Assembly (NCBI GenBank): GCA_963813075.1
Contig: CAWEXU010000012.1
Coordinates: 1 to 41,356, forward strand
From: Methanotrichaceae archaeon
GTDB taxonomy: Archaea; Halobacteriota; Methanosarcinia; Methanotrichales; Methanotrichaceae
Direction: 5' to 3'
Length of the DNA: 41,356 nt
Under the pieces are notes generated by a model. It was not told where the DNA came from, made no database searches, and was given only the letters and a program-made list of their open reading frames with translations. This document shows, piece after piece, positions 5,180 through 41,356 of the stretch. Position 1 is the first letter of the stretch. Each line of letters starts with the position of its first letter. A program made the translations under genes and the position numbers.

Positions 5180-5309
5180 AAAATCACTTATCATCAGAAA
5201 ATAGGCTTAGGCAGATAAATAAGTGATTATTACAAAAGAATTGCCCGGCAAAAAGAGTGTCGCCTGCAGTGCAGAAGTGCTGCAAGCGAATTTGCTGGAT
5301 ATTTTCTGA

Positions 5310-15262: not shown

Positions 15263-15291
15263 GCCTGAAAGGCGTTTAGCCGCCACAGGGG

Positions 15292-16089
15292 TTAATTCTC
15301 GGGATCGGGGACTGGGCCAGTGCCCAGCCCTCGATCCCGAATTTCAAAGACGTCATCAGCACTGATGGTCAGGGGCTTAGAGGGAGTGAAGCTCGGATAA
15401 ACGGGGTCATAGCCCAGCCAACTGTAGGCTCCCGCATGGATAATGTCGTTGCTGCTGATGTTCATATTTTTTGATATATGGAACGTTCCGATGTACTCCT
15501 CTTCCAATTCCAGGGTGGGGTTCTTCCAGGCATTGGCCTTGCTGCCAGCAGCCTGACCCGACATCGACTGAGAGTGGTCTGCCTGAAATGCACCGATATT
15601 GACCTTACCTTCAGTAACAGTCTCATCGATCTTCATTCCAATGAACGTCGAGCTGACCTCTGTCGAATCGCCCTCCTGGTAGCTTCTTTCTGATACTATG
15701 TACTCTGCCGAGCCCGAGACCTCCCTGGCGGATTGGATGGAGTGATGCAAGGAGGCTGGAGACGAGCCCTTATTGACCACCTCAGTCCGGCTGGAGACGG
15801 GAGCAAAATAGGCGATGGGATGAGATGAATAATAGCCGTTTTCGGCGGTGATGTTCGCTGTTGAGTTGGTGTTGGAGTGGTTGATATTGTTTTGGAGTTG
15901 GAGATGAATGGATGAAGCGGAAACTCTATTCAGTTGATCCAGCTGATCCAACCGATCCTCTTGGGCTGCTGCACAGCCTATCAGGGCTATTTCGATCGCC
16001 ACCAGGGCGCAGATGATGGCCATACACGGCACTGCTCTGGATCTACTGATCCGATGAGGAATGAGTGAAAATATCGCTTTTATTGTCAT
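15292..16089 (-). CDS. Secreted hypothetical protein (start uncertain)
   Basis: Long ORF with a hydrophobic segment (MAIICALVAIEIALIGCAAA) followed by a Ser/Asn-rich beta region. Confidence 0.6.
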   Translation of the reverse strand: MTIKAIFSLIPHRISRSRAVPCMAIICALVAIEIALIGCAAAQEDRLDQLDQLNRVSASSIHLQLQNNINHSNTNSTANITAENGYYSSHPIAYFAPVSSRTEVVNKGSSPASLHHSIQSAREVSGSAEYIVSERSYQEGDSTEVSSTFIGMKIDETVTEGKVNIGAFQADHSQSMSGQAAGSKANAWKNPTLELEEEYIGTFHISKNMNISSNDIIHAGAYSWLGYDPVYPSFTPSKPLTISADDVFEIRDRGLGTGPVPDPEN

Positions 16090-16200
16090 TTGTCCTTTAG
16101 CTCCCTCTTGGGCTCTATTGGCCCCTGAACATATATTTTGATCGGTTGGAACTGGACGGGATGCAATTCCAGGAGTAAGGTGCAAGACAAACAGAAGCGA

Positions 16201-16614
16201 TTAAGGATTGTTGACGGATGGATAGATGACCAGATTTCTGTCGCGAGTTAAGATCGATGATATTATCCAGTCCATCAGGTCCGGCAGCCGGCAGAGAATG
16301 TGCTCGAGATTAGTGGATACGGGATACCCTCTTCCCTCCGAAGAACGCTTACCGTCAAAGCCATTCAAGATGGAATCGTTGATCCCTTCATCAAAAAGCG
16401 AGCTTAGCTCTCCTTTTCCGTTCAGAGCGAAACCGTCGATGATATGTGTCTTTATATCCTCTCCTTGAAAGTCGCAGGTTTGAATGCATAAAGCTGCCCG
16501 GCCTCCCTCAGATAGTATAAAGAAGTACCGTCCGGGATTGTCCAGGAGTTCATTTTGCAGCTTTTTGCGGCTGACCTCAATTCCAATCTTTATCATAATC
16601 CCCAAATCCCACAT
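16201..16614 (-). CDS. Hypothetical protein
   Basis: 137-aa ORF with a protein-like composition and an AT-rich TATA-like region upstream; no family recognised. Confidence 0.5.
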   Translation of the reverse strand: MWDLGIMIKIGIEVSRKKLQNELLDNPGRYFFILSEGGRAALCIQTCDFQGEDIKTHIIDGFALNGKGELSSLFDEGINDSILNGFDGKRSSEGRGYPVSTNLEHILCRLPDLMDWIISSILTRDRNLVIYPSVNNP

Positions 16615-16872
16615 AGCCCGTAATATAACATTAAATAATTAACAATCAAGGGTTATATGTTTTTTGGTCGTCTCTTTATAAGCGGGATATATAGTGGAAT
16701 ATATATTCATCATTATTGCTAGCTGGCAGAGCTATTTTCTCCGGAAAATGCATAGAGCCTAAAATATTTTAAGGCATCAGGTGAGACGCACCGATAAAGG
16801 GTTAATATGGGTATAGGGGATAGCTCGATCTGGAGGATGGATTCGAACATCGATCCATGAGGATTCTGTCTT

Positions 16873-17478
16873 ATGAGGCTGATTGAGATTTTTCGTTCAA
16901 TGCAGGGCGAAGGCCCGGCCATGGGGAGGCCGGCCTTATTCATCCGGCTATCAGGCTGCAACCTGAGATGTGCTGGATGCGACACCGATCTCAAGCCATC
17001 CCTGGACCTATCCATTGCCCAGCTGCTGGAGAGAATTGAGGGCCAGGGGAAGAGAGTGATCATAACCGGTGGGGAGCCGACGCTGCAGATGGAGGAGCTA
17101 TCGGATCTGATCTGCAGGCTGCACCGTCAGGGAATGGAGATTCATATCGAGAGCAATGGCACCAATATAATCCCACAGGAGACCCTGGAGAAGATCAGCT
17201 GCGCAGTGGTGAGCCCCAAGAGGGGATCGAACTTTCATCTCGAATTCTGGGCGAATAAGGAGAATGTGCATCTCAAATTCGTCCTGGGAAAGCCAGACTG
17301 GTGCTGGAGAGCGGAGGAATTGAAAGATCTCATCCCCACCCTTGACCGGGAGAGAGTGTGGATAATGGCTTATGGCGCCGATCAGGGAATGCAGAACGCT
17401 AAGGAGGCCTGGGACCTGGCACTGGAGCTTGAGGCCAACTACTCCGATCGCCTGCATATCAGATTGAAAAGAAGCTGA
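16873..17478 (+). CDS. queE: 7-carboxy-7-deazaguanine synthase (radical SAM)
   Basis: EIFRSMQGEG, FIRLSGCNLRCAGCDT, IITGGEP, IESNG, VSPK, RLH. Confidence 0.9.
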   Translation: MRLIEIFRSMQGEGPAMGRPALFIRLSGCNLRCAGCDTDLKPSLDLSIAQLLERIEGQGKRVIITGGEPTLQMEELSDLICRLHRQGMEIHIESNGTNIIPQETLEKISCAVVSPKRGSNFHLEFWANKENVHLKFVLGKPDWCWRAEELKDLIPTLDRERVWIMAYGADQGMQNAKEAWDLALELEANYSDRLHIRLKRS

Positions 17479-17655
17479 AATCAACAAAATCCGCTTCAGG
17501 AGAAGCTCATCTGCTGGTAAATAGGGGATGGACCCGCCCGCAGGGAGTAATCAGAAGGGGTTTAGGCTCGGGCGGTCTAACTCATAGTAGTATCGGTGGC
17601 TATGAATAGCTTGGCCGTGCAGGGCGAAAGTGAGGACAGTTGGAGGAGGAGCTTC

Positions 17656-25667: not shown

Positions 25668-27233
25668 ATGAAAACTCTTGCATTATTGTTGGCACTTCTC
25701 CTAGCAGCGATCCTGATACCCCAAGCCGCCAGCATATCGATAAAAACCAGTGGTTGCGATGCAGGAAACTGCTTTTCCGATTCGATGAACATCGATGCAC
25801 CAATCGATGCGACAGTCAGTGGCAGGACGACTATCTCCGGAGCCAGTTCGGCTCAGGCGATCTCTGGCCGCGGATCTCTCCATAAAAGATACTTTGCAAC
25901 CAGCCCTCAGGGCGATAATGCATCAATATCAGTCGACGTCCTGATGGCCAGGTCCTATGAGTACAACCAGCCATTTAGAACTCCGGGTGAGGCCAAGTTG
26001 AGCGGCTTTTCTCTGGATGCCAGCAATGCCCTTGCCATCAGCTGCGATGCCGATGCGGTGAACAGGGATGGTGCCAGGGCGAGCGTTCAGACGGATGTAA
26101 TCATGGGCTCTTTAGATGGATACACCAGCTCCGCCCAGGCAGATGAGAGCGGTGCGAGAGCAGAGCAGTTGGCAGGACCGACATCTGGCGCTCTGGTAAG
26201 CTTCAGCTCATCCTCCTCCAACGGCGCAGATCTGCATTCAAATGCCAACACTCTTGCCGCTGGCGGGTCCTTCGGAGGCTTTTCCAGTGAGGCTAACTCC
26301 AATCCCCAGGAGGCCCAATCCCGCCAGGCCTTCTCCTCGGCAAACGGACAGATGATATCTGCCTTTTCATCGGCACTGACAGCAGAGAACCTGATTTCCG
26401 GCCAGACCACGGTCTCGCAGGGATCAATAGCCAGCTACAGCAGCTCTGCCAGCTCCAATACTTCAGGAGAAGCTGAGGTCGTCCAGGGCATGCTTGGCGC
26501 AAATGGGGAATCGATCCACGTCGCCGACACCTCAATCGGCCAGTCCGTAGCCAGGGTATCCACGGATGTGAAAGAGGGCAATGTACTATTCCTTGAAAGC
26601 CGCTCTTACGTCAGAACCATGCCGATGGGCGCGGAAGGCGAATACATCAGGATCCCTGATGCCTGGCACTATGCTACCGCTGCCGGCGAAGATATCTTGA
26701 TCAGATCCACAGCAGCGAGTCTATTTTGCAATGCAGACTCCTCGACCAGTATCGATAATGGTACCATCTATGAATACCTGAATGAGGCAGCATCCCATCC
26801 ATATGCAGGGATAGCGGCGCAGATTGCTGCCGCGGCGGATGGAGAGAATATACACCTCGAAGCGTCATCTGCAGATTATACGACGGCGTCATCTGCCCAT
26901 GCACAGTCAAATATCCAGGAGGGCAGTCTGGAGAGCTTTTATAGCGGCACTGGAGCGAACATCGTTCTCAGCGAGACTGGCGGTATCCAACTGTCTCCAG
27001 GATCTTTGATCGCTGTGCAGAGGGCTTCAGACTTTACAGGGAATGTCAGCCTATCCGCCCGGGCGGACATAATGGACCTGAACATGACTTCGGAGCTATC
27101 TGTTCCTCCGGGGTTCAGGAGCTTTCTCCAGCTGGCCGGAACGCAGGACGGTTATCCTCCTCTGGCATTTCAGATGATCTCTCCACTTCCCGATGGCGTT
27201 CCTGACCCCTTTGCCGGCTTTTGGCTCCCCTGA
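25668..27233 (+). CDS. Secreted Ser/Ala-rich protein with internal degenerate beta repeats
   Basis: Signal peptide MKTLALLLALLLAAILIPQAAS; recurring GSLxxYxSxA / NGExI-like units. Confidence 0.7.
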   Translation: MKTLALLLALLLAAILIPQAASISIKTSGCDAGNCFSDSMNIDAPIDATVSGRTTISGASSAQAISGRGSLHKRYFATSPQGDNASISVDVLMARSYEYNQPFRTPGEAKLSGFSLDASNALAISCDADAVNRDGARASVQTDVIMGSLDGYTSSAQADESGARAEQLAGPTSGALVSFSSSSSNGADLHSNANTLAAGGSFGGFSSEANSNPQEAQSRQAFSSANGQMISAFSSALTAENLISGQTTVSQGSIASYSSSASSNTSGEAEVVQGMLGANGESIHVADTSIGQSVARVSTDVKEGNVLFLESRSYVRTMPMGAEGEYIRIPDAWHYATAAGEDILIRSTAASLFCNADSSTSIDNGTIYEYLNEAASHPYAGIAAQIAAAADGENIHLEASSADYTTASSAHAQSNIQEGSLESFYSGTGANIVLSETGGIQLSPGSLIAVQRASDFTGNVSLSARADIMDLNMTSELSVPPGFRSFLQLAGTQDGYPPLAFQMISPLPDGVPDPFAGFWLP

Positions 27234-27306
27234 GGAGCCCTCCTTTTTTCTGCCCGTCGATTCTCTGCCTTGCCACCCTTCTATCTAGCCACTCCTCTTC
27301 TATCTT

Positions 27307-27849
27307 CTATCGAGCCACCAGTTCTATCAGATCCTGATCGATGGGAGTTCTCTCGTCCACTGCGGAAAGGAGCTCATCGTGAATGGAACTCTCCGAGTAA
27401 AACAGGGTTACCAGTACGCCTGCATCCTTCGCCGCCTCGATGGCGGGGAGAAAATCGCTGTCACCAGTGACGATAACCGCTTTTCCGATCATCCGGCCGC
27501 AGCTCAGCCGGACGAGGTCCGCGGCCAGGGCGATGTCCACCCTCTTTTGCACGAACTCTCCTCCCACCCGGCCCAGACGGCCCAGCTTAACCTCGAATCT
27601 GGGGAGCTTTCGCAGAGTGTAGACGAACTTGTCCATGGAGGCGAACCTGCGGCTCTCCTCGTCGGTGGACGGACAGCTCTGGTAAGGCATACAATTATAA
27701 TAATAGGTCCGAAGACGCTCATAGTTGCCGCAAAGAATATCAGAAAAACGAGCAAGGTCGATCTTCGGTTTTCCGAAATCGACATCTAATATCTTGGTTA
27801 GATAAGCACCATCGATAAAAACTGCTGCACGATCAGCCAAACTATTCAC
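27307..27849 (-). CDS. NYN-domain (LabA/DUF88, PIN-like) ribonuclease
   Basis: AVFIDGAYL, QKRVDIALAAD, VTGDSDFLP, AKDAGV. Confidence 0.92.
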   Translation of the reverse strand: MNSLADRAAVFIDGAYLTKILDVDFGKPKIDLARFSDILCGNYERLRTYYYNCMPYQSCPSTDEESRRFASMDKFVYTLRKLPRFEVKLGRLGRVGGEFVQKRVDIALAADLVRLSCGRMIGKAVIVTGDSDFLPAIEAAKDAGVLVTLFYSESSIHDELLSAVDERTPIDQDLIELVAR

Positions 27850-27943
27850 CTAAGTCCATAATTACTGCCATCCTCAAGGAACGGCAGTGATCATTATCTT
27901 TACTTACTTTCTCATCCCAATCTATATCTAATTTGCGTCCCAG

Positions 27944-27974
27944 GATAGCCTTTTCTATATAGAGAGAGGCTATC
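27944..27974. terminator. Inverted repeat between slyD and the NYN gene (terminator or operator)
   Basis: GATAGCCT-tttctatatagagag-AGGCTATC: perfect 8-bp arms, extendable with G-U pairs. Confidence 0.45.
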
Positions 27975-28020
27975 TTTGTATCTCAATATCACTGTAGTTC
28001 AGTTCCTATTGTCCTGACGG

Positions 28021-28458
28021 CTACTTGCTTTTCGTTATCTCCAGCAGCTTAATATCGAAATACAGCGTCTGCTCGACCAGGGGATGATTTGCATCCAGAG
28101 TGACTGTGGTCTCTGTCACATCTGTGACCTGCGCAGGGACAGAGGTGTCCTCAGAGACGCAGATCTCAAGGCTCATTCCTTCCACTGGGGCCAGATCTGA
28201 AGGGAAATCCTTTTTATCCAGGGTTATCGCCCGGTCATCCCGGTAGTGGCCATAGCCCTTTTCCGGAGGGATCTGGACCGTCTTGGATTCGCCCGGACTC
28301 ATCCCCACTACCGCCTCTTCAAAGCCGGGTATGAATGAACCTGATCCGACCTCAAACTCCAGTGGATCGCATCCTTCTGATGTATCAAATATGACGCCTG
28401 TGTCAAGCTTCCCGGTGTAGTGCACCTTTACGGTGTCGCCAATTTTCGCCTGTGCCAT
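28021..28458 (-). CDS. FKBP-type peptidyl-prolyl isomerase (SlyD-like)
   Basis: GDTVKVHYTGKL, IPGFEEAVVGM, LDANHPL. Confidence 0.93.
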   Translation of the reverse strand: MAQAKIGDTVKVHYTGKLDTGVIFDTSEGCDPLEFEVGSGSFIPGFEEAVVGMSPGESKTVQIPPEKGYGHYRDDRAITLDKKDFPSDLAPVEGMSLEICVSEDTSVPAQVTDVTETTVTLDANHPLVEQTLYFDIKLLEITKSK

Positions 28459-28643
28459 ATAATCCACCTCTTTATCCTTGACCCCTTTTCTTATTACCTA
28501 CATATAGCTTCACCTATCCCATAGCCGCCCAGACGAAAGATAAAATCCATCGAATACATGATCCATCAGGAAGGTCCATATCTGAGTAGCGACAAATAAA
28601 TGGCGGATACAATTAAGCGGCATATCAAGGGTGAAATTAAGAT

Positions 28644-29525
28644 ATGATTAGATGGAAAGCGGACAGGGGGCTTGAAGCCAGAATGCTGCTGACCATGGCC
28701 CTTCTGGCAGTCCTGTACCTGGCGTTTCTGGCAGTTCTCTTATCCCAGGGCGTTGACAATATTGTGATTATTCTATTCATAGGCGGGTTCATGCTTTTTC
28801 AATACTACTATTCCGATAAGATGATCCTGTCGAACATGGGCGCTAAAATGGTCTCTGAGAGCGAAGCTCCTGAGCTTCATCAAATCGTCTCCAGGCTCTG
28901 CGCCATTGCCGACCTGCCTATGCCAAGGATTGCCGTAGTGAACAGCTCAATGCCAAATGCTTTTGCCACCGGCAGGAATCAGAAGAATGCGGTGGTGGCG
29001 GTGACCACGGGCATTATGCAAAAGCTGGATGCAAGCGAGCTGGAGGCGGTGCTGGCCCATGAGCTGACTCATATTAAGAACCGGGATATGATGGTCATGA
29101 CCATAGCCACATTTCTCTCCTCCGTCGCCCAGGTTCTGGTCAGAAATTTCCATTTCATGGGCGGAGGCGGTGGCCGCGGTCGCGATTCGGGAGGCAGCTT
29201 CATCGTGATCTTCGCCGTCTCCCTGATAGTATGGATTTTGAGCTTCATACTCTTGCAAGCCCTATCCAGGTACCGGGAGTTTTCTGCCGACCGCGGAGCG
29301 GCGATAATCACCGGTCAGCCCTCAAACCTGATGAGTGCATTGATGAAGATAAGCGGCTTTCAGGTGCCAACAGAGGATCTGAGAAAGGTGGAGGGGCCAG
29401 TCAGAGCTCTGTTCATAGTGCCTGCCCTCACCCGCTCTTCCATTATGAACCTCTTCTCCACCCATCCATCTCTGGAGGCGAGGATCGAAGCCCTGCAGAG
29501 GATCGAGCAGGGCCTGGAGATCTGA
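28644..29525 (+). CDS. htpX: Zinc metalloprotease HtpX (M48)
   Basis: PNAFATGR, AVLAHELTHIKNRD, SRYREFSADRG, FSTHP. Confidence 0.95.
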   Translation: MIRWKADRGLEARMLLTMALLAVLYLAFLAVLLSQGVDNIVIILFIGGFMLFQYYYSDKMILSNMGAKMVSESEAPELHQIVSRLCAIADLPMPRIAVVNSSMPNAFATGRNQKNAVVAVTTGIMQKLDASELEAVLAHELTHIKNRDMMVMTIATFLSSVAQVLVRNFHFMGGGGGRGRDSGGSFIVIFAVSLIVWILSFILLQALSRYREFSADRGAAIITGQPSNLMSALMKISGFQVPTEDLRKVEGPVRALFIVPALTRSSIMNLFSTHPSLEARIEALQRIEQGLEI

Positions 29526-29527
29526 AG

Positions 29528-30091
29528 ATGGGATTATTGGACTCCATCCTGGGAAAGACCCGCCTGCCCGAGGCCAAGACCGACCGGCTGTTCGCCATCT
29601 CCACCGCAGCGGTGACAATGGAGGCGAACCTCGATCTTAAGCCGGATGGACAGGCCGGGTTATGCATCAAGCCCATGGAGTCCTCTTACTATGAGTCTGC
29701 GAAAAAGGAGATCGATGACCTCCTCAAGCTGAGCTTTAAGGAGACGGGCACAGTACACAGCATCCAGAAGGATGAGTACGGCTACATCTGGGTAGTGCTG
29801 ACCGACCCGGATTTTGAGGATCTGGTGGCTAATATCCAGATGATCAGCCAGATATTGATGGAGCAGGGATTCGGAACACAGCTCCTGGCGGCAGTCTACC
29901 GCTTCCGGGGAGCTACTGTTGCTTACTGGATATACAACTTCAAGCTGGGATCTTACTATCCCTTTGTGCCGAAATCCAGTAAGCAGCGCGACTCAGCAAT
30001 GGAGTTCCGGCTGAGGTCCCTGATGCAAAGGGAGATACCGATAGAGAAGGATATGGCCAGGTGGTATCCCATGTGGGGAATGCCACTTTAA
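29528..30091 (+). CDS. PspA-associated protein PspAB-like
   Basis: MGLLDSILGKT...DRLFAISTA, DEYGYIW, GFGTQLLAAV, YNFKLGSYYPFVP, WYPMWG; this family is typically found next to htpX. Confidence 0.7.
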   Translation: MGLLDSILGKTRLPEAKTDRLFAISTAAVTMEANLDLKPDGQAGLCIKPMESSYYESAKKEIDDLLKLSFKETGTVHSIQKDEYGYIWVVLTDPDFEDLVANIQMISQILMEQGFGTQLLAAVYRFRGATVAYWIYNFKLGSYYPFVPKSSKQRDSAMEFRLRSLMQREIPIEKDMARWYPMWGMPL

Positions 30092-30155
30092 GCCGCCATT
30101 CTCATCGCTCCTCCAGGATTGGAGCCTTTGCATCGATTCAGACCTTTTCAACCTT

Positions 30156-30205
30156 GCAGTCTTACAGCCTTATAGTCTTAGCTCAGCCTTACAGCCTTAC
30201 AGTCT
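30156..30205. repeat. Degenerate 8-bp tandem repeat (CAGYCTTA) at the convergent pspAB/DOMON gene ends
   Basis: cagtctta cagcctta tagtctta gct cagcctta cagcctta cagtct. Confidence 0.75.
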
Positions 30206-31334
30206 CCTCAAACTCGCTCCTCTCAAGATGACGCGGCTCGTATTCTATTCCCTGATCCCGAAGGTCGGAAACATAAGAACGAAGGTGCTTTCTGGAGCCT
30301 GCCAGCAGTCCCTGATACATAGTCCTGACGTCCTCTTTTTCCGCCACCGCCAGCTCAGCCTCCAGGTCCATGATGCTTATCTCCTCGAATTCAGCCGCTA
30401 CCATCAGGGCATTCTCATCCGACTCTAATCCCTCTTCCAGGAGGCGGTCGTGGATCTCCTGCAATGTCTGATTTTGGAACACTCCCGGCACATCCTCGGG
30501 GAGGGAAAGGTTGTACTTATCGATGACCGCCCTCGCCTGGTCCATGTGGCTGATCTCCGATCTGGTCAGATCCAGGAAGATTGTGAGATTATTCATCTCA
30601 TATAGCGATGTGTAGATGTCTCTTGCTGCTTTTTCCTCCTCCCAGATGAAGACGAGACCATCTTCCTCTCCTGGGGTCAGCGCTCCCAGGACGGAAGCAG
30701 ACGCCTCCCCACCCGCGCGGGTCAGGGAGAGGATGCCCTCGCCGTAGGCCACATCGTGCTTCTGGCTGATGTCGGGGTTGTCGGATAGCGCCCAGATGAT
30801 GGAGACCGCCTGTCCAGGGGAGAAGGACTTGTCGAACCGGTCAGAGGACTGGAGCGACCTCTTCAGCTCAATAGTGGTCCAGCCAGCTGATTCGCTTCCC
30901 GCAAATTCCTTGATATCGGATGTACCACCCAACATGGTATCCTCGATATGCGGGCCGTAGTTGCCTGTGCAGTACTCGTCCAATACTATAGCCTTGCCCG
31001 TGTCCACCGAGGCCAGGATAATATCGGATTCTTTCATCCACTCCAGGGGCTCAAAGCCCAGGGCTAGCCAGCCGAGAGTGCTGCCGTTCAGGGCGAGGTA
31101 GAGATCCTCTTCGTCATTTCTCCAGGAGATCTCTATGTCCCCGCCGCTATAGCCCTGCCTGTTCGGGGCCTGGAGGAGCATGCTGCGAGTATATTCGCCT
31201 TCACTGACTATCCCATCGGCCTTCCATTCCTCTGTGGCCTCCTGCTCTGAGACCGCCGGGGCCTCTGGCCGCTCAACGCAGCCCGAAAAGACAAGCAGCA
31301 GAGCCAGGAGCAAAAAAGCAATGATCGCTCTCAT
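30189..31334 (-). CDS. Lipoprotein with a DOMON domain fused to a DUF2202 ferritin-like domain
   Basis: FSGC lipobox; DOMON (GWLALGFEP..WMKESDII, IIWA..QKHD); ferritin-like (EEEKAARDIY, SEISHM, EEISIMDL, GSRKHLRSY). Confidence 0.8.
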   Translation of the reverse strand: MRAIIAFLLLALLLVFSGCVERPEAPAVSEQEATEEWKADGIVSEGEYTRSMLLQAPNRQGYSGGDIEISWRNDEEDLYLALNGSTLGWLALGFEPLEWMKESDIILASVDTGKAIVLDEYCTGNYGPHIEDTMLGGTSDIKEFAGSESAGWTTIELKRSLQSSDRFDKSFSPGQAVSIIWALSDNPDISQKHDVAYGEGILSLTRAGGEASASVLGALTPGEEDGLVFIWEEEKAARDIYTSLYEMNNLTIFLDLTRSEISHMDQARAVIDKYNLSLPEDVPGVFQNQTLQEIHDRLLEEGLESDENALMVAAEFEEISIMDLEAELAVAEKEDVRTMYQGLLAGSRKHLRSYVSDLRDQGIEYEPRHLERSEFEETVRL

Positions 31335-31479
31335 ATCCAAACACCATTTCAATACACCTGGACTGCAAGCTATATCAGGCTATTCCATCCGCAGCTTATT
31401 GTTTCCAATTCCTACCGAGCTATTATGAGAGGAAAACATAGATATATCAAAACATCACTATTAATTATTGTGATTGATC

Positions 31480-31566
31480 ATGATAAGGCTCGTCATTGCA
31501 TTCCTGCTATTGTGGCTGCTGGCGGCCTGGATTCTTGCCTGGCCAAGAAAAGCAACCAGAGCATAA
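31480..31566 (+). CDS. Candidate 28-aa single-pass membrane microprotein; not in the ORF track
   Basis: MIRLVIAFLLLWLLAAWILAWPRKATRA*: a ~19-residue hydrophobic run and a basic tail, with GTGA 5' of the ATG and an AT-rich promoter-like region upstream. Confidence 0.45.
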   Translation: MIRLVIAFLLLWLLAAWILAWPRKATRA

Positions 31567-31653
31567 ATCTCCCTGTAGCCTAGCTATTGTGGTGAGTTTA
31601 ATGTCAATGATAGCCGGCCAGCCATTGGAGGCAGAGTGATATTTTCATCTTTT

Positions 31654-32244
31654 CTATCTCTCATGGCTTTCCAGGATCTCTATCAGCTCCTTTGAGGTGA
31701 ACCGGCTTATCAGATCCAGCGTCTTTTTCATCTCCCCATAAAACTGCAATGATTCCGCCAAACGAGCCTTTAGCTTCTCCTCTGTCCTGTCCCTCTCATC
31801 ATCTTCTCTCTTGATCCCAGCATCCCTCGCACCCCTCTTCTCTTCATTCTCTTCATTCTCTTTTCTATCCAGGTTATCTCTCACCTGAATGAGGGCTTGC
31901 AGGATCAGATCGACCTCCTCTTTGGCTGCAGAGAGGATGACCTGCCTTTTGGCTTCGGCATCGTTCACCAATGCATATCGATGCTGCTTGATGCTATGAT
32001 GCATATCCTGGGGGCTGACCACCCTACGAGCTATCCCCAGGTTCTCCAGCAGGTTCATGCTGGATCGGACGGTGGTTTTGCTGTAGCCGGTGCTCTCTGC
32101 CAGCATATCCAGGGACATGGGTTCGCTCTCCAGGAAGAGGGTGCCTCGAAGAAGTCCAATGGCATCACTCTTTCCATATTTCCGGGCTGATTTGATGCAT
32201 GCCTCTATAATTGGCTTTTTCAGCTTCGGAGATTCCCTATCCAT
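31654..32244 (-). CDS. GbsR/MarR-family transcriptional regulator
   Basis: YGKSDAIGLLRGTLFLESEPMSLDMLAESTGYSKTTVRSSMNLLENLG winged HTH followed by a coiled coil. Confidence 0.82.
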   Translation of the reverse strand: MDRESPKLKKPIIEACIKSARKYGKSDAIGLLRGTLFLESEPMSLDMLAESTGYSKTTVRSSMNLLENLGIARRVVSPQDMHHSIKQHRYALVNDAEAKRQVILSAAKEEVDLILQALIQVRDNLDRKENEENEEKRGARDAGIKREDDERDRTEEKLKARLAESLQFYGEMKKTLDLISRFTSKELIEILESHER

Positions 32245-32338
32245 CACAGCGTTCCACTCGAAAGAGGCGTTTAAGTAATTTGCTCTCCCCGCAGCAAGGA
32301 AGCAAAGGGTTTTATGATACAAAGACCCATTTTTGCAT

Positions 32339-32789
32339 ATGAAATCAAGTCCATCTGGAAGCAGCGATCTGGAGCAGATGATAGGCAGTGCAGCGGTTGA
32401 GGTTGCTCGCATATCAATCCAGGCGGCAAAGAAGATCCTGGGTGAACTGCCAGGCGATATCGCTATGGAAAAGAGCCAGGATCACCCTCCCATAGATCTC
32501 ATGGACATGGAAGGATGAGCTGGTCGCTCTTGTATCCCTGCCGGGGATGAGCAAGGATATGATCGACTTGCGGGTGACGGAGGACACCCTCACCATCAGC
32601 GCCAAAGCAGCGGTCAGGGAGGGAAAATACCTGCGCCATGAGATAGAGAACCGAAATTTAGAGCGTGAGATCAAGCTGCCTGTTGAGGTCAAGCCGGAGC
32701 AGGTTAAAGCGAGCTTCAATGAGGGAATCCTGGAGGTCCATCTTCCCAAGCTGGTGGTGGTAGACTCTCAGAGGATTCCGGTGGAGTGA
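32339..32789 (+). CDS. Hsp20/alpha-crystallin small heat-shock protein, frameshifted near 32513
   Basis: PPIDLMD (first frame) joins DELVALVSLPGMSKDMIDL...EREIKLP..VKASFNEGILEVHLPK. Confidence 0.85.
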
Positions 32790-32848
32790 TCTCGAAAAAT
32801 TATTTTTTCTCTGTAATGTAATTATCCGGCTCCGATTTTAATAAACTG

Positions 32849-34096
32849 ATGACAACCCCTACCAAAGGCCCAAAGCCCGATCCCCGGACGGATGCAAAGA
32901 CGAAAAAGAACGTCCTCTTATTGGGCTTTGTCAGCTTTCTCAACGACATCAGCAGCGAGATCATCCAGCCCATTCTGCCCCTTTTCATCGCTCAACTGGG
33001 TGGGGGGAGCATGGCGGTGGGCCTCATCGGCGGGGTGAGCGACGGCCTGCCCAGCATTCTCAAGGTCTTCTCAGGATGCTGGTCCGATCGTCTGGGCAAG
33101 AGAAAGCCGCTGGTGGTGGCTGGTTATGCCCTCTCGGCAGCCGGAAAGCTCTTCTTGCCTTTTGCCTCCGCCTGGCAGCAGGTCTTTTTCCTCAAGACCC
33201 TGGAGAGGAGCGGCAAAGGAGTGAGGTCCGCTCCCAGGGACGCCATGATATCCGAGTCCACAGATGAGAGCTGCAGAGGAAGGGGTTTTGGCCTGCACCG
33301 ATCCATGGACTCAGCGGGTGCGGTCATCGGCTCGTTGCTGGCTTATCTACTCTGGCAGGGCGGCTACAGCTATACCTTTATCCTGGCGGTAGCGGGAGTT
33401 CTTTCCATTGTGGCTCTCATTCCCTTCTACCGGGTAAAAGAAAGCTTTCGCGCTCCTGATTGCAGCACCAGAAGTGCTAGCAGCACAAGCAGCGCCAGCA
33501 GCCCAAGCAGCAACAGAATGAATCTATCCTCTCTATCGCCTGAATACAAGCGCTTTCTATTCATAGCCTGCCTCTTCGCCCTGGGCAACTTCAGCTATAT
33601 GTTCTTCATCCTCCGCGCCCAGGAGCATTTCTCCGGGTCAATGGCCGTGGCAGCGCCTCTTCTTCTCTATCTGCTATTCAATCTGGTCTATGCCCTCCTG
33701 GCCCTGCCGGTGGGCATATGGTCGGACCGGGTGGGAAGAAGGAGGATTCTGGTCCTGGGATACTCCCTTTTTGCCCTGACAGCAGTTGGATTTGCCGTCG
33801 TCTCCAGCCTCTGGGGACTGATCGCCCTTTTTGCCATGTACGGCCTGGTCTATGCCCTGGTGGACGGCTCGGAGAGGGCTTATGTCTCTGACCTGTGCCC
33901 GGCCGGGCTTCGGGGCAGCTCTCTGGGCATATATTACGGGGCAGTGGGGGTGGCCTCCATCATCTCCAGCCTGGTTGCCGGAGCCCTCGGGTCCCGGTGG
34001 GGCGCTGAGGCTTCGTTTCTATATGGAGCATCTGCTGCGGCTTTAGCGGCAGTGGGGCTATTGGCGATGATAAAGAGTGGTGATGAATCACTATAA
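32849..34096 (+). CDS. MFS transporter
   Basis: SDRLGKRK and SDRVGRRR motif A, GKGVRSAPRDA, about 12 TM segments. Confidence 0.93.
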   Translation: MTTPTKGPKPDPRTDAKTKKNVLLLGFVSFLNDISSEIIQPILPLFIAQLGGGSMAVGLIGGVSDGLPSILKVFSGCWSDRLGKRKPLVVAGYALSAAGKLFLPFASAWQQVFFLKTLERSGKGVRSAPRDAMISESTDESCRGRGFGLHRSMDSAGAVIGSLLAYLLWQGGYSYTFILAVAGVLSIVALIPFYRVKESFRAPDCSTRSASSTSSASSPSSNRMNLSSLSPEYKRFLFIACLFALGNFSYMFFILRAQEHFSGSMAVAAPLLLYLLFNLVYALLALPVGIWSDRVGRRRILVLGYSLFALTAVGFAVVSSLWGLIALFAMYGLVYALVDGSERAYVSDLCPAGLRGSSLGIYYGAVGVASIISSLVAGALGSRWGAEASFLYGASAAALAAVGLLAMIKSGDESL

Positions 34097-34275
34097 GTTA
34101 AATTGTGTCTACTCCTGCAACTTTGAGCGGATGCATGCCGGCGTTCTGCATCTGAGAGAGCATTGCCTGGTCGACATTGAACACCTTCCTTGAATCAATC
34201 TTATATATGGCGAAAAAAAAAGGGATAACTTGCGCGATTCCATGCGAATGGCCAAACAGATGAGAGATCATAGGG

Positions 34276-35149
34276 ATGTATTCAATCGAGACACGGGATT
34301 TAACCAAGAGGTTTGTGCTGTATAGAGGATTCCTGGATGCATTTAAAAAGTCCGGAAATAGAGATATTTTGACCACACTGGATAAAGTTAACATCAAAGT
34401 TCGAGAGGGGGAGGTCTTCGGCCTTCTCGGTCCCAACGGAGCTGGCAAGTCCACTCTGATCAAGATACTGTGCACCCTGATTCTCCCCTCGGAGGGAGAG
34501 GCATACATCAATGGCTATGATGTGGTGCGGGAAGGGCAGAGGGCCAGAGAGTCCCTGGGCTTTGTGACCACCGATGAGAGGAGCTTCTACTGGAGGCTCT
34601 CAGGCAGAGAGAACCTGCAGTTCTTTGCCACCCTCTACAATCTGCCTCAGAATGTCGTCAGGTCAAGGACAGAGGAGCTATTGGATGTGGTCCGGCTCAA
34701 ACACCGGGCGGATGAGCCCTTCTATAGCTACTCTGCAGGTATGAAGCAGCAGATGGCCATCGCCCGCGGGCTTTTAAACGATCCTGCGGTCCTCTTCATG
34801 GACGAGCCGACCAGAAGCCTGGACCCGGGAGCGGCAAGGAATCTGCGCAATTTCATCAAGGAGAAGATCGTGGGAGAGAAGGGAAAGACCATCTTCATCT
34901 CCACCCATCAGCTGGATGAGGCGGAGGAGCTCTGCGATAGGGTGGCCATACTGGATGAGGGGAAGATCAAGGCCAACGGGAGCCCAGCGGATCTGAAGGC
35001 TGGCCTATTCCGAGGGCAGCACTCTGGGCGATGTCTTCAGCCATTATACCGGCAAGGCATCTCTTGAGGAGCATTCGACCTCATTTCCGGTAAGCGTCCC
35101 CAGGCAGAGGAGCAGAGGGCGGGGCATGAGCAGGAGGAGAGGAATATGA
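34276..35149 (+). CDS. ABC-2 type exporter ATP-binding protein; C-terminus frameshifted near 35010
   Basis: GPNGAGKST, YSAGMKQ, MDEPT, STH. Another frame continues STLGDVFSHYTG... to a TGA overlapping the permease ATG. Confidence 0.9.
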
Positions 35150-35952
35150 TCTTCGAGAAGGCATTCTGGTTCATCAAGAAAGGCTATATGCTGCAGATGA
35201 GCTACAAGTTCGACTTCTTCTTAAGGCTATTTTTCATGCTCTTCAACATACTGACCTACTACTTCATCGCTAAATTGATCGGGGAGGGGGCAGCCAGGTA
35301 CCTGGAGCCCTATGGCGGGGATTACTTCTCATTCGTTCTCATAGGCATGGCCTTCTCCGGTTATCTGATGATCTCACTCCGGAGCTTTTCCGAGAGCGTG
35401 CGAGACGAGCAGATGATGGGGACCCTGGAGGCCATGCTGGTGACTCCTACCAGCACATCGAGCATCATCGCCCTGTCATCTCTCTGGAACTTCATCTTCG
35501 CCTCCTTCCGGGTGCTGATGTATCTGATCATAGGCATCTTCCTGGGAGTGGATATGACCCGAGCCAATGTTGGCGGGGCGATATTGATCCTGATCCTCAC
35601 CATAATATGTTTCAGCAGCATAGGAATATTATCGGCCAGCTTCATCATGGTCTTCAAGAGAGGGGACCCGATCAACATGCTCCTGATGGGCACCTCTGAG
35701 CTCTTCGGCGGGGTCCTCTTTCCCATCGAGGTCTTCCCGTCCTGGATGCAGAGCATCTCGCACATCCTGCCCATCACCTATTCGGTCAATGGCATGAGGC
35801 ATGCCCTCCTGCAGGGGTACACTCTGGGCGAGCTGGCTCCGGAATTGCTTACCCTGCTACTGTTCTCGATTGTGCTGCTCCCACTGAGCCTGTTTGTGTT
35901 CGAGAGGGCGGTTCTGAAGGTCAAGGCGGAAGGGGGATTGGTGCAGTACTGA
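35146..35952 (+). CDS. ABC-2 type transporter permease
   Basis: EQMMGTLEAMLVTP, GGVLFPIEVFPSW, LPITYSVNGMRHAL; six TM segments. Confidence 0.92.
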   Translation: MIFEKAFWFIKKGYMLQMSYKFDFFLRLFFMLFNILTYYFIAKLIGEGAARYLEPYGGDYFSFVLIGMAFSGYLMISLRSFSESVRDEQMMGTLEAMLVTPTSTSSIIALSSLWNFIFASFRVLMYLIIGIFLGVDMTRANVGGAILILILTIICFSSIGILSASFIMVFKRGDPINMLLMGTSELFGGVLFPIEVFPSWMQSISHILPITYSVNGMRHALLQGYTLGELAPELLTLLLFSIVLLPLSLFVFERAVLKVKAEGGLVQY

Positions 35953-36108
35953 AGAGGTAGGGTCTCGATGCCTGCGGCTGATGGATGTCGTGCGATGGAG
36001 CTGAAACCACATCAAAGCCTGTTGGGGGGCACGCAAGGTTATTTGCGGGCGGTTGCCTCCCCCTTCAGGCTACCGAATCTGGATGCCAGTATTCGGAGGG
36101 ATGGACGG

Positions 36109-36224
36109 GATTGCATTATGGTTAAGACTGATCTAGACAGGGTGTCTTTTTTAGTGGGCGCCGCGAGTCGGCCTGTCGGGCCGCGGCCAACGAGGTCCCC
36201 TCAACGCCGGGGTGGCTTGGATAC
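36109..36224 (+). repeat. Copy 1 of a duplicated ~115-bp non-coding element (candidate promoter plus structured sRNA)
   Basis: The first 27 nt are identical to 37190-37216; core 36161-36224 is 61/64 identical to 37241-37304. Confidence 0.9.
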
Positions 36225-36633
36225 AATTGGATGCAAGCCGTTGAAGGGTTGGGATGCATCGATAAGGATGTTCTCCAGATGCAGAACGAAAAGGCTATGG
36301 AATTCACGAATAAGGAACGCAGTGGTAGCTAGAAAATTTTATAATTAAAAGAGTATTCGCCAGGCGGGCACAAAGCAATTTGCCTTTATTCTCGAATGAA
36401 TCCATAAGTATGGATCTGTCCCTGAGGATCATATGCCTGATAGCTATCGATTAGGAGCAAGATATAATCCTGATAGCTTTTTCGAGAGGCCAATTGAAGG
36501 GCTATTCTGAGGAAAAAGGAATCCAAATAGAATTAACTAATAGATATTTTATGAAGTGTTCTGGGAGGTGATACTGATTATTGGACAAAAAAAGATTTAA
36601 ATGATGGATACTCGCCTTACAGTCGCTCAGGGA

Positions 36634-36997
36634 TTAATACGGATTGCATGGATAGATTGTGAAAGTGGCTACATGCCCTTCGGGATTGCCATCGGTTTTC
36701 ATCAGCTGGTAGTATAGATTAGTGCGCTTTACCCCTCCGCTGGCGGGAGGAATAACCAGGAATGAACCATCTTGGTTTACAATAGATATCACCAGCAGCA
36801 GGATTGGTGAACTCAAGATACCATGGATTGATGACTCCAAGATAGTTGCTATGAGCTCCAATCAGCCCATGGGCAGCGTCGCGTTCATTGTTACAGTTAT
36901 TGATTATATACCCGCTCGGATTCCATGCCAGTGCGGATGGCATGGCCAGGACCATCACCAGAAAGATGACGGCCAGAACTGATCTCGTCATACTCAC
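36634..36997 (-). CDS. Small secreted protein with a single Ig-like (Big_9/cadherin-like) domain, frameshifted near 36785
   Basis: Signal peptide (SVLAVIFLVMVLAMPSALA), DAAHGLIG, then PAAGDI joined to VNQDGSFLVIP...LYYQL...VATFTI. This resembles the G.l.vn.DGSF.Y.P pattern of Big_9-like repeats. Confidence 0.55.
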
Positions 36998-37189
36998 GCA
37001 ATTAGTTTTTCATGTCTTAAATAGTTTTTGATAAATAATTTTTTGTACTAATTTAATTATTTATTATTGCATAAAAAGTTTCCAGACCGGACCTTTTGTA
37101 GTGGGCTTGTTAGTGCTCATTTATCCCTGCTCAGATCGGGGTGTTTTAAGGTTTACCGGCCATACTTGAATCTTGATTGCATTATTCTT

Positions 37190-37304
37190 GATTGCATTAT
37201 GGTTAAGACTGATCTATACAGGCTCTTTTTTCAGTGGACACCGCGAGTCGGCCCTGCGGGCCGCGGCCAACGAGGTCCCCTCAACGCCGGGGTGGCTTGG
37301 ATAC
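37190..37304 (+). repeat. Copy 2 of the duplicated non-coding element
   Basis: Matches copy 1 as described; preceded by an exact 15-bp tandem duplication TCTTGATTGCATTAT x2 (37171-37200). Confidence 0.9.
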
Positions 37305-37622
37305 CATATTCGGATGGATAGACGGGGTTGGTTTGATTTGCTTTTCCGGATGTTCAGGATATGGGTTGCTTCGGCCAGCGGCATTTTTACCGGAAGCGCT
37401 GGGTTTGAGGGTTCGCTGAATGGTGATATGGAGTCTGGAGTCTCACAATTATAGGAGGAGACAGATGGGGATTGTCCGTGGATTTTTATAAATTACTTGA
37501 TATTCTCCGGGCGGGCCAGGGTCTTAGCTACCCCAACTGCTGATTGAAGGATCGGTTTGGATTTCGTCAGTCGATCTGGAATTGGCTGCGGGCATTCGAA
37601 GCTTACCGTTTATTTTGCAGTA

Positions 37623-38252
37623 TCAGAGGAGCAATTTGCCGGTGAGGGTAATTCGAAGCTCCTTTGTCTTGCCCTTCGGCAGTACCTCCAGGGCCTGGAT
37701 ATCAGCCAGCCGGGCAACCTGTCTGGAGATGGTGCTCTCAGAAAGGGATAGCCGCTGTGCGATATCTGTGATGCTCGTGGGCGAGAACTCAGATACATCC
37801 TTTAAGATCCTTATCTGCTTCTCATCAAGCGCTGAGACTATATTGGGCAAGCGGATTTCATTGAGGCTTCTGTCGATATCGCTGAAGTTGGTAGTCTTGT
37901 GGATCTTCTCTGGCTTGGAGATGCAGGCTATGGTGAATGCGAGGAATATCTCCCGCGGCCCTCCGGAGAGATTCGCGATGACCTCACCCTCCGCTTTTTC
38001 CAGGAGGTCTTTTAGAGAAAGTACCATCCCCTCGAAATCCTGATGGTTGACCCGGTAAATCTCTAGATTTATGGAGCTGTCGATCTGGCGGGAGAGATCT
38101 CGAATGGCCTGAGTGGTCAATTCTCCGCGCGTGTCCGGCTCTACTTCAGGACGGATAAGGACTATTCTATCCCCGCCTTCAATACCATACTTCACTATCA
38201 GGGATACTATCTGGGAGGAATCGAAGCCTGAGAGAGATAGGTAGGTTTTCAT
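37623..38252 (-). CDS. csa3: CRISPR-associated CARF-wHTH transcriptional regulator Csa3
   Basis: TYLSLSGFD, ANLSGGPR (CARF motif), C-terminal HTH SITDIAQRLSLSESTISRQVARL...ITLTGK; divergent from cas6. Confidence 0.9.
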   Translation of the reverse strand: MKTYLSLSGFDSSQIVSLIVKYGIEGGDRIVLIRPEVEPDTRGELTTQAIRDLSRQIDSSINLEIYRVNHQDFEGMVLSLKDLLEKAEGEVIANLSGGPREIFLAFTIACISKPEKIHKTTNFSDIDRSLNEIRLPNIVSALDEKQIRILKDVSEFSPTSITDIAQRLSLSESTISRQVARLADIQALEVLPKGKTKELRITLTGKLLL

Positions 38253-38375
38253 TGCTTAATATTGCAATTCCTAGCTTAAATTCTTTCCGTTGCATTCTTC
38301 TGAATTTATAGACTTATTATTGCAGAAATATGAAATTATTGCAATAATCGACAGATTTAAATGCAAGGGAATGTA
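38251..38375. promoter_or_regulatory. Divergent csa3/cas6 promoter with repeated TGCA motifs and a perfect 14-bp palindrome
   Basis: ATTATTGCAATAAT at 38335-38348; further TGCA at ~38263, 38291, 38321 and 38362; TATA-like TTTATA and TTTAAA. Confidence 0.65.
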
Positions 38376-38386
38376 ATCTCTGATCG

Positions 38387-39235
38387 ATGCCACAGAAGAT
38401 CACACTCATACTCCGGCCAGAATCTGGATTTGATATTCCATACAGCGATGGTTACCAACTATATTCTTCATTGCTGGGGGTCATGCGGGAGGCGGATGAG
38501 ACAGCCGCCATCCACACGCACGATTCTCCTATCAGCTCTATATCCTTGGGCCCTCTAGAGGGAAAATTTCTGCGCACTGATAGGTCAAGGCATAAAAGGG
38601 TAGACCCAAACGAAAGATACAGTCTCAAGATAGGGATAACCGATCCAAATGAGGTGGAGATCTTCCGCTCCATCATCCAGCCATTGGTCTTGAGAGAAAG
38701 AAACCTCCGCCTGGAGAGAGGAGATTTGCGGGCGGAGGAGGTTTCCAGCTCAACTACCAGCTTCCAAGATATTGTGAAGTCAGCGGGAGAGGTCAAAAAT
38801 CCATACCTTGATTTTGAGTTCAAATCGCCGGTCTGCATTCAGTACAGGAACAGCAAGGTCTTTGAGATGTTTCCTCACCGGGAAGCGGTATTTCAATCTC
38901 TCTTATCAAAATGGAACTCGGTATCTCCAGAGGAACTGAGGATGAATATTGAGCGGGATGAGATGGCACGCTACATCGTAGAAAAGCCTCTGGCCTACGA
39001 TACGCACAGCGTGGTGGTGAACACCGTGTTCGACAAGGTCAAAGGCCATCCAAGGCCGATAATGAGGCAGGGATTCGTGGGGCGTTGCCGGTACACCTTC
39101 GCCAGGGATGCACCTGATGGCATGAGGAATGGAATTGTAGCCCTGGCCATGTTTGCAGAATATAGCGGTGTGGGAAGTGCAGTCGCCCGCGGGTGCGGGG
39201 CGGCGAAGGTGATTGTGGGGGAGGTGGAGAGATGA
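38387..39235 (+). CDS. cas6: CRISPR pre-crRNA endoribonuclease Cas6
   Basis: FKSPV, QSLLSKWN, GFVGRCRY, and the G-rich loop FAEYSGVGSAVARGCG. Confidence 0.93.
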   Translation: MPQKITLILRPESGFDIPYSDGYQLYSSLLGVMREADETAAIHTHDSPISSISLGPLEGKFLRTDRSRHKRVDPNERYSLKIGITDPNEVEIFRSIIQPLVLRERNLRLERGDLRAEEVSSSTTSFQDIVKSAGEVKNPYLDFEFKSPVCIQYRNSKVFEMFPHREAVFQSLLSKWNSVSPEELRMNIERDEMARYIVEKPLAYDTHSVVVNTVFDKVKGHPRPIMRQGFVGRCRYTFARDAPDGMRNGIVALAMFAEYSGVGSAVARGCGAAKVIVGEVER

Positions 39236-41356
39236 TTTCTATTTTGGATTCAGACGATTTGGAATTAGAAGAATATAATTCAGAATATCTGGAAAATATC
39301 TCAAACGAGAAGGTGGAAGATTATAAGGAAATAAAACTTCGTATCAAAGAGTATGTGAAAGAGGTCTTACCACATCTATTTAAAGAATCTGCTCAATTGG
39401 ACGCAAAATTCAATAAAGCTCTGAGCTTTTCTGCTCATGTAATTACAGCAGTATTTACTGGATCAATTTTGTACATATATGATCGGATATCAACTGAGCA
39501 ATCACTCCCAAATTCACATGACATGAGACTTCTTTGTACAGCGCTCACCCTTCATGATATCAATAAATATTGGAACGAAATAACTAATTCTAGAAATAAA
39601 GGAAATTATTATACTTTAATTCAAGATTATTTTAAAACAGATCCCTTCAATATAAAGACATACTTCCCGGAATGGGAAAGTGAGCTGGATGAGATTGTTT
39701 TTCTAGTTCAACACGCGGAGGAAAAAGATGTTTCGCAGTGTGAATCAAGATTCTTTCAGCCAAAATACGCCCGACTTCTACCATATGTAAAATTTGGGGA
39801 TAAGGTCGCCAGTTTGGGTAAATCTGAATACCCATTGCAGGAAATTCAAAAGCTACTGAACAGCAGTGGATATAACGTGCACATCTTGCTACTTCCTGAA
39901 ATGCCGCAGCAATTGCTATCGAGATTGTATATCGAAGCGCCAAGCAATATTTGGTCCAATCCAACGGGATTCCACTGCTCATATCTCCCCAGGGAATCTT
40001 ATATCTATCTTCAAATAAAATAAACATTAATGCATCGGAGTTAAAAAATTTAATTAGCAAGGAACTTGTAAGAAATACGAATGCTAAACCAACATTAAAT
40101 AACAAGAAATTCGATCTATCTCCGTTACTATCTATCCCGCTTGATACACAAACACGTTTTAAAGTTTATGTAGGATCAGTACGAGAGAGAACTGAAGCAG
40201 GCTTGTTGAGCGTTCTTGGAAAGACAATTTACCCACCAGAAGAAGATATCCAAGAAGCCCTAGCATGCATTTCTTATTTTATATATAATGATAAAAAAGG
40301 AAATGATTGGACAACATTTCCTAAATTGGAGAAGGAACTAAATGACGAAAAGTTGCGAAATGAATTAAAGAAGATCGGAGTTATCCGAGATACATTCGCG
40401 AATCAGGATGATGTTGGTGGGCAGAATTGCAAGTCATACACAGTTCATGAAATTGTTAATAATCAAAATAACTTGAAAGATACCTTGAGATTACTGCATG
40501 ATCCTCTCAAAAAAGAAATTTTGTCTAAATTAGAGGATAATTCATCCGCCTTAGATCCAATAATCGAATTATTGTGCGCTCAAAATGGGGAAATATCCAC
40601 CGGCCTTGTTGAGATGGTCGTCCCAAAAGGAAATGAAGATACTTGCTTTAAATGTGGTGCAATCGCAAAGAAGGAATACAAGCCGGGAAAGCACTTCATG
40701 CAATCAGGAGGCTTCACCAAACGTGCAACATTGAATGATCAATATAAGCGTGAATGCGATGTCTGCCAGATGGAGCATTTATTGATCGATAATATGATAC
40801 AAAAGAGCGGATTTAGAATAACAGACGATGTTATTTTCTTCTATTTCTATTTTGATTCGATATTTGTGAACGTGGACATGTTCCATGAACAAATGAGTAA
40901 GGTGCAAATAAGCGTCCAAGGAACAAGAGACGGAAAAACTCGGCTTAACATTTCGGCTAGGAGACTTTGAGACACCATTTCATATTGAGCCTATGGCTAT
41001 AAAACTGCCACCTGGGGTGCGAGAGCAATCAAGCAAAAGCACTCGTAGAGCACGAGCGATTCACACAGCTATAAAAGCTTGCTTGGACTGTGGCTGCAAA
41101 TGTGTAATAACAAGTCCATACACCCTCATGCGAATGTACAACGAGGTATTTTACAACGAACGACCAACAACGCTCGAAAAGACCATGGGGCTAGATAATA
41201 TTAAGGATTTTAGAACTGCGAGACTTATTGATCATAGACTTGACTTCATAAATCAATTAGATGGCATGAAAGGATTGCACCGCGTACAGAGCTTCGAACC
41301 TATCAATGTTATTCCTTTTGTAAAGAGAACCGTTGAGAATTTCGAAGGCTGGGTTA
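39232..41356 (+). CDS. cas10d: Type I-D large subunit Cas10d (Csc3), frameshifted near 39925 and 40935, running off the window end
   Basis: N-terminal HD nuclease (LSFSAHV, LTLHDINKY, FGDKVAS); QQLLS...NGIPLLISPQGILYL; Zn finger CFKC...CDVC. A third frame stays open to the end (LGDFETPFHIEP...FEGWV); ATGA overlap with cas6. Confidence 0.8.

Follow-up and report, generated by a model that had tools for sequence, protein, structure and literature searches.

The window, a stretch of 41,356 nucleotides from a Methanotrichaceae genome assembly (contig CAWEXU010000012.1), carries two copies of a structured repeat belonging to a family that is dispersed through Methanotrichaceae genomes and occurs on viruses. 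We hold, with moderate confidence, that this is a non-autonomous hairpin repeat of REP/REPIN-like character, carried by proviruses and providing a homology anchor for the turnover of gene modules. The initial annotation, made from the window alone, had proposed a duplicated promoter-plus-sRNA unit specific to a type I-D cas locus. An uncatalogued structured element with two real hairpins, enriched near defence genes, is what endures of that reading; the cas-specific sRNA gene does not, since the copies are dispersed, their promoter is unconserved and the head sequence is local.

The two window copies and their setting

The first copy, of subtype A, extends over positions 36149..36225 of the plus strand, with hairpin 1 at 36161-36186 and hairpin 2 at 36197-36212, a T-rich lead, a GG run and an A-type tail reaching to GGATAC; it scores 78.7 bits with the covariance model of the family (R1) and 31.8 bits with the model of the full-length form (R2). 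The second copy lies on the same strand at 37229..37305 (hairpin 1 37241-37266, hairpin 2 37277-37292; R1 74.4 bits). Both represent a derived subtype lacking the third hairpin of the full-length form. Each is preceded on the plus strand by a head and spacer (36109..36148 and, by sequence comparison, 37190..37228) lying outside the conserved family core, and the first of these is common only to copy 2 and to a single copy on another contig, C31. Each is also followed by a second repeat, motif B, consisting of an AT-rich stretch and then a 15-nt GC-rich word, at 36355..36369 and 37502..37516 (plus strand), co-oriented with subtype A. The two units lie where they had originally been placed, with heads identical at 27/27 positions, cores at 61/64 and a spacing of 1080-1081 bp.

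The copies sit between an ABC-2 permease gene (35146..35952, plus strand), upstream of copy 1, and a csa3 gene for a CARF-HTH regulator (37623..38252, minus strand), downstream of copy 2. As had been noted earlier, cas6d and then cas10d follow (38387..41355, plus strand), the latter split over three ORFs and leaving the contig end. Between the copies lies a minus-strand module at 36545..36997, its low end approximate, containing a small gene (ORF 36719-36997) with a signal-peptide-like start and no Pfam match. This gene is likely frameshifted, because it carries one extra base near 36784 relative to its C31 paralog and to contigs of RNA runs. Immediately before copy 1, a degenerate stretch (36040-36108) resembles a decayed hairpin 2 together with the DNA downstream of copy 2 and is possibly an older third copy. 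The entire MFS-ABC-csa3-cas6 region is present twice in the assembly at about 92% identity, in the window at 32849-41356 and on C31 at ~26000-35000.

In agreement with the earlier failure to assign the units to a known RNA, no Rfam family was found for them at gathering score, and none at E≤10 apart from two sub-threshold chance hits (E 4 and 9); the only other match in the window was a tRNA elsewhere. The two hairpins originally proposed are borne out by covariation across the family, but the minimum-energy folds of the window cores differ from the two-hairpin model and, each folded alone, the cores are not more stable than shuffles (z +1.75 and -0.20).

Copy number, anatomy and range of the family

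An iterated profile search of the source genome (G000; 82.8% complete, 31 contigs) located 53 copies in 23 clusters, all 53 intergenic by a simple gene call, where the initial annotation had counted two. The head that it had called invariant recurs with three mismatches or fewer in only three of these copies; the remainder carry other head types, and heads, hairpin 1 loops and tails are mixed in all combinations. Co-orientation prevails in 29 of the 30 neighbouring pairs at most 5 kb apart; divergent and convergent pairs about 110-120 bp apart are also present, together with 200-250 bp tandem arrays. For the TATA element proposed about 30 nt upstream, no positional A/T motif was found before 128 distinct members, 21 of which carry a TATA-like word there, and upstream base frequencies and alignments reveal a T/C-rich lead and a GG run with no conserved tag. 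Many dispersed copies, which the initial annotation had itself named as counter-evidence to its proposal, are thus what the genome contains, 36 of the 53 lying at distances above 5 kb from every cas gene or array identified. The same intergenic gaps also hold short imperfect repeats of another, unrelated family, in which CAGAG and CACAG words abound (L182, which is the ACS-RimK gap of genome G005; L031:2911-3468; L249).

The shared plan consists of a T/C-rich lead, the GG run, hairpin 1, a linker and hairpin 2, followed by one of three tails, with an overall length of 75-105 nt and two or three hairpins. Hairpin 1 has a CGCG-based stem with a freely varying top, and hairpin 2 closes its TCA..GCC loop of 8-9 nt with a stem of 4-5 bp. 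A third hairpin comes with the X tail and produces the full-length form of about 100 nt; several full-length copies form a stable cloverleaf (z -2.3 to -3.2), and other copies fold weakly (-0.3 to -2.0). For the shorter A tail, carried by the window copies, conservation drops four to six bases after its GG, and downstream of many subtype A copies there is an 8-nt inverted repeat with no conservation between species.

Hairpin 2 shows the strongest covariation: at least eight Watson-Crick stems occur there with exact partners (GCCC, CCCC, CCAC, CCGC, GCAC, GTCC, GCGC and TCCC), 14 of 128 sequences remaining unparsed. Over the whole structure, double-change cells number 111 against 36.6 in shuffles (128-sequence model alignment), and alignments A2 and A5 agree on covariation. 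A2, A3 and A5 were all filtered for or fitted to structure, and paired percentages are inflated because entry into A2 required pairing in hairpin 2 (132 of 233 candidates passed, and 38 representatives were then taken) and A3 was fitted to the model; the distinct hairpin 2 stem types are not an artefact of this filtering. The earlier suggestion that pairing is kept only on the plus strand is not confirmed for the family: outside the column closing the hairpin 1 loop, mismatches are balanced (16 G-T against 19 A-C). That one column favours the plus strand, with 46 G-T and no A-C, 28 of 113 rows being unpaired there.

Mean folding z is about zero on both strands, as RNA or DNA (43 of 128 sequences), RNAalifold yielded no consensus structure for 43 unfiltered copies with flanks, the subtypes misaligning, and an Rfam scan of the viral full-length copy gave no match. 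Contigs assembled from RNA runs of relatives, compared for 4 of 9 runs, showed no joints or transcript ends and bear on transcription neither way. At the ends of the element, terminal inverted repeats amount to at most four shared end bases, and a 10-bp match in one virus is absent from its relatives. In a look for target-site duplications, 11 of 27 copies had a longest shared flank word of 5 nt, where shuffles had 2.5, and none exceeds 6 nt.

The R1 model detected the family in 47 of 100 Methanotrichaceae genomes, with 42 positives among 54 genomes of the genus, 5 among the 5 of two sister genera and none among the other 41, and in none of 150 other genomes from the phylum. The R2 model detected the full-length form in 39 of 74 family genomes, from seven genera, one of the 39 being a single weak match, and in none of 76 other genomes of the class. 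Copies per genome range from one to at least 45. Nine of 14 exact pattern matches fell in Methanothrix, Methanosaeta or uncultured Methanosarcinales, and the remaining five, on short contigs in unrelated bins, are probably misbinned. A plasmid collection contained no match to the repeat.

Gene neighbours, module turnover and viral copies

Cas genes or arrays, which cover 3.2% of the genome, are found at most 5 kb away from 17 of the 53 copies, belonging to 7 of the 23 clusters; this enrichment is overstated because the copies cluster and the cas list was partly drawn from their own neighbourhoods. The cas loci concerned include types I-G and III in addition to I-D, and genome G008 has a csa3-cas6 pair with no repeat copy on the contig or elsewhere. 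The CRISPR repeats of the source genome are unlike the repeat core. Toxin-antitoxin (TA)-family genes, encoding PIN, ParE, HicAB, TumE, PemK, MazE, HEPN and MntA proteins, occur in the examined flanks of 11 of the 23 clusters, and are also found beside copies in the sister genera. Flanks additionally contain Mrr, GmrSD, TPR proteins and pieces of family A polymerase genes. Many TA genes and arrays end facing the 3' side of the repeat, and one toxin stop codon adjoins the 3' end of a copy.

Motif B replaces the last 8 nt of the terminal CRISPR repeat in several arrays, and it also precedes lone CRISPR repeat fragments elsewhere; further sites in G000 lie at C17 1428-1480, C7 108170-108220 and C10 ~96600. 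Fragments of the 3' region of csx3, a ring-nuclease gene, are scattered on C17, C10, C27 and C7 of the same genome, most of them adjoining copies.

Several other features of these regions deserve mention. Genes or gene pieces for family A DNA polymerase occur between copies beside CRISPR arrays in several Methanothrix genomes (L004:6542-8420, L006:18-1019, L047, L291), and a TnpB gene occurs between a cas1 fragment and cas2 at L016:3510-5835. An IS110-family element of about 495 aa is located inside CRISPR arrays at three places in G000 (C7 ~300-2080, C7 ~108400-110000 and C10 ~95000-96500), which suggests that it targets the CRISPR repeat.

Comparison of loci points to module turnover. The C31 paralogous locus, 92% identical to the window, has three copies with a PIN-type TA module between the second and third, a module absent from the window. 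Window copy 2 has the core of the first type and the downstream DNA of the third C31 copy; it is likely a recombinant, because its core resembles that of copy 1 and its post-tail DNA matches the third C31 copy. The junction between the ABC-2 gene and the repeat is lineage-specific, since 18 of 19 relatives have no copy in the stretch examined downstream of that gene (up to 1.5 kb) and only one has copies. In the gap between the acetyl-CoA synthetase and RimK genes, G045 carries a copy, motif B and a csx3 remnant directly after the T-run 3' of the synthetase gene, G000, G005 and G021 carry truncated copies joined at a 5-nt microhomology, and four more distant genomes have no copy. Among the matches listed (86 modules), homology of shared modules ends at scattered positions, from about -52 to +107 around copies, which fits homologous exchange and not a single crossover base; locus L103, an apparent palindromic assembly artefact, was left out of this reading.

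Viral scans with five subtype A and X patterns gave no match, whereas a sister-genus pattern matched three viral contigs and a protein search yielded four. Each of these four related contigs, from tailed dsDNA viruses with terminase and portal genes, carries one intact full-length copy, located in the gap between a pair of co-directional genes, upstream of the terminase-portal module, and better conserved than the adjoining coding DNA. The element, about 96 nt with sharp ends, is the only sequence that the four have in common with G000. They are likely Methanothrix viruses, because related DNA and proteins occur on Methanothrix contigs. No Rep gene was recognised in the parts of the viral sequences examined. 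Methanothrix proviruses carry the full-length form too. At the orthologous intergenic position of a G042 provirus, whose neighbouring proteins are 59-91% identical, the subtype is a different one; a provirus in G041 carries its copy at another position and in the other orientation relative to its genes.

Among other features, the virus at L376 encodes a 1037-aa fusion of ATP-dependent DNA ligase, uracil-DNA glycosylase-like and prohead protease domains (14489-17602) and an ArdC-type anti-restriction protein, and a GC-rich, structured-looking non-coding stretch lies beside a provirus integrase and a repeat copy at L335:2585-2735.

Competing explanations and known systems

If the repeat is non-autonomous and REP/REPIN-like, it would spread between hosts on proviruses. 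A protein would recognise the element folded as a single strand, most likely through hairpin 2 and its TCA..GCC loop, as suggested by the turnover of stem sequence while pairing and loop are kept. New copies may arise at T-rich intergenic sites through an enzyme acting in trans, and a module with co-oriented copies on either side could be deleted, duplicated or swapped when these copies undergo homologous recombination or gene conversion. Such recombination would explain the mosaic copies, the tandem arrays and the scattered breakpoints. Two observations sit less easily with this reading: the different subtype at the orthologous G042 position suits a viral function better than selfish spread, and the cloverleaf folding of some full-length copies would also be explained by a role as RNA.

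In the search for a mobilising enzyme, clustering of 1,624 ORFs from 169 loci revealed none recurring beside the repeat. RAYT (NF047646) remained below cut-off in all five genomes searched, some partly incomplete. The Y1 matches in G000 are all IS200/IS605 TnpA proteins (seven), whose element ends are unlike the repeat, and the presence of TnpA does not follow that of the repeat: no TnpA match was obtained in G068, which carries at least 45 copies, and TnpA without any R1 match occurs in 12 of 16 genomes from genus g12. Neither does the number of tyrosine recombinases or integrases track copy number. IS91-type Y2 transposase gave no match in 105 family genomes and Rep_1 searches gave nothing tied to the repeat, both weak blanks, the controls being silent too. 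In G000, no resolvase and no reverse transcriptase (RT) exceeded cut-off and the one tyrosine recombinase is broken, and IS110 and DUF559 searches revealed no enzyme tied to the repeat.

Several candidates were rejected. IS110 was discarded as the mover because its copies near the units actually lie inside CRISPR arrays, and retro-mobility because G000 has a single RT-like ORF, a LINE-like gene that none of 58 other genomes of the genus contains. That ORF, of 1910 codons at the start of C31 (~1-6000, L038), resembles the RT of eukaryotic non-LTR retrotransposons and is likely contamination or a chimeric join. A hammerhead-like word in one subtype, a relaxase nic-like word and a rolling-circle nick word were set aside, as the relevant bases vary or partner segments are missing.

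Other explanations centre on the viral copies. We regard as tentative, and less likely than not, the possibility that the repeat is a recognition site through which Methanotrichaceae viruses are served by an undescribed single-strand mobilisation system, hairpin 2 being bound by a protein from the virus or the host, with dispersed copies co-opted by the host as integron-like platforms that exchange TA, restriction and CRISPR modules with no adjoining integrase. It seems rather unlikely that the repeat is primarily a cis-acting signal of temperate viruses or integrative elements, namely a folded single-strand origin, a nick or priming site, or a signal for RNA processing or expression, and that chromosomal copies are captured relics amplified by recombination. 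The single, well-conserved viral copies and the G042 provirus, keeping a different subtype at the same site, argue for such a signal, as does the location beside integrase or provirus-like genes of the lone copy in G013, of that in G057 and of the two in G041. Nevertheless, position and orientation relative to genes differ between the related proviruses L376 and L425, a copy occurs at only 1 of the 30 best integrase loci, most copies in low-copy genomes adjoin ordinary or TA genes, and the tail has no exact match to the pGT5/pTN1 origin word given in PMC9569500.

The remaining explanations are weaker still. A role as RNA in read-through transcripts from TA genes, arrays or viral operons, where it would stabilise the 3'-UTR, terminate transcription or cleave itself, would suit the exclusively intergenic location and the convergence of TA genes and arrays on its 3' side, and the hairpin 2 loop is loosely like the L3 loop of HDV-like ribozymes. 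We consider it improbable, in that both orientations occur relative to neighbouring genes. For an HDV-like ribozyme in particular, 31 of 127 subtype A copies lack the segment needed for P1, conservation stops four bases beyond the putative P1.1, so that neither a catalytic C nor P2 is conserved, nothing is conserved where P4, J4/2 and P2 would lie, and neither form matches an Rfam ribozyme. That the repeat is an attC-like site, at a fixed point of which a recombinase of an integron-type cassette system moves modules, is about as improbable. Co-oriented arrays, gene-sized modules, the many TA pairs, the toxin stop codon abutting one copy and the inverted repeat downstream of subtype A point towards it, but the scattered breakpoints and free combination of heads, loops and tails imply no single crossover, the inverted repeat varies between species and L boxes are absent, the broken tyrosine recombinase is the only one in G000, and the downstream gene is antisense in only 32 of 53 cases against a background of about 46%. 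Least credible, in our judgement, is the original idea of independently transcribed sRNAs acting with type I-D Cas proteins. The covariation is real, a third or so of the copies lie near cas genes, those accompanied by motif B border the ends of arrays and the 3' ends of csx3, and one column favours plus-strand G-U pairing; against this, neither promoter nor head is conserved, most copies are distant from cas loci, the neighbouring loci include other CRISPR types while the G008 pair has no copy, the core differs from the CRISPR repeats and there is no overall strand bias.

Elements such as CreTA and crRNA-like RNAs share with the repeat the presence of a non-coding element beside cas genes, but the repeat is not derived from a CRISPR repeat, is not confined to cas loci and has no promoter. 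Archaeal rolling-circle origins, as described for Rep-Arvir (PMC13107129) and pGT5/pTN1 (PMC9569500), likewise combine a conserved hairpin, a sequence-specific loop and an adjoining variable inverted repeat and are single in each virus; in contrast, the repeat occurs on tailed dsDNA viruses and in dozens of chromosomal copies. Non-autonomous IS200/IS605 derivatives and MITEs resemble it in being small, structured, non-coding and dispersed, with T-rich intergenic sites favoured, although it shows no similarity to the ends of the genome's seven elements and lacks real terminal inverted repeats. With integron attC sites and CALINs, including archaeal ones (PMC9668308), it shares co-oriented structured repeats and TA-rich, gene-sized modules with no integrase alongside, though a few copies lie near integrases; unlike attC, it has no R or L boxes, is not one long hairpin, has no fixed crossover and occurs in inverted pairs. 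The main text of that archaeal integron survey names neither Methanothrix nor Methanosaeta.

The closest likeness is with the bacterial REP, BIME and REPIN elements, as presented in PMC3733652: extragenic GC-rich palindromes, lineage-restricted with large swings in copy number, that occur as singletons, head-head and tail-tail pairs and tandem clusters with flanking DNA. CGTC REPs are also reported to lack a dedicated transposase. Classical REPs are 20-40 bp in length, compared with 75-105 nt and two or three hairpins for the Methanotrichaceae repeat. The repeat differs further in having no GTAG or CGTC tag and no RAYT found, in the conserved loop on a covarying stem, in its archaeal hosts and in its presence on viruses. 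It probably works like a REP/REPIN and is, like them, a multicopy intergenic palindrome, yet it lacks the tag, and no RAYT was found over cut-off in the five genomes searched.

No description of the repeat was found in the literature searched, which covered open main texts. Small structured repeats of this kind have so far been a bacterial topic, and an abundant covarying family in the main acetate-consuming methanogens and their viruses would provide a handle on the shuffling of TA and CRISPR modules, with the 8-9 nt loop, conserved although its stem changes freely, serving as bait for the recognising protein. Caution is also warranted, as calls of a duplicated sRNA beside cas genes in Methanotrichaceae can prove to be this hairpin repeat. 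The best reading of these comparisons is that of a REP/REPIN-like structured repeat new for archaea.
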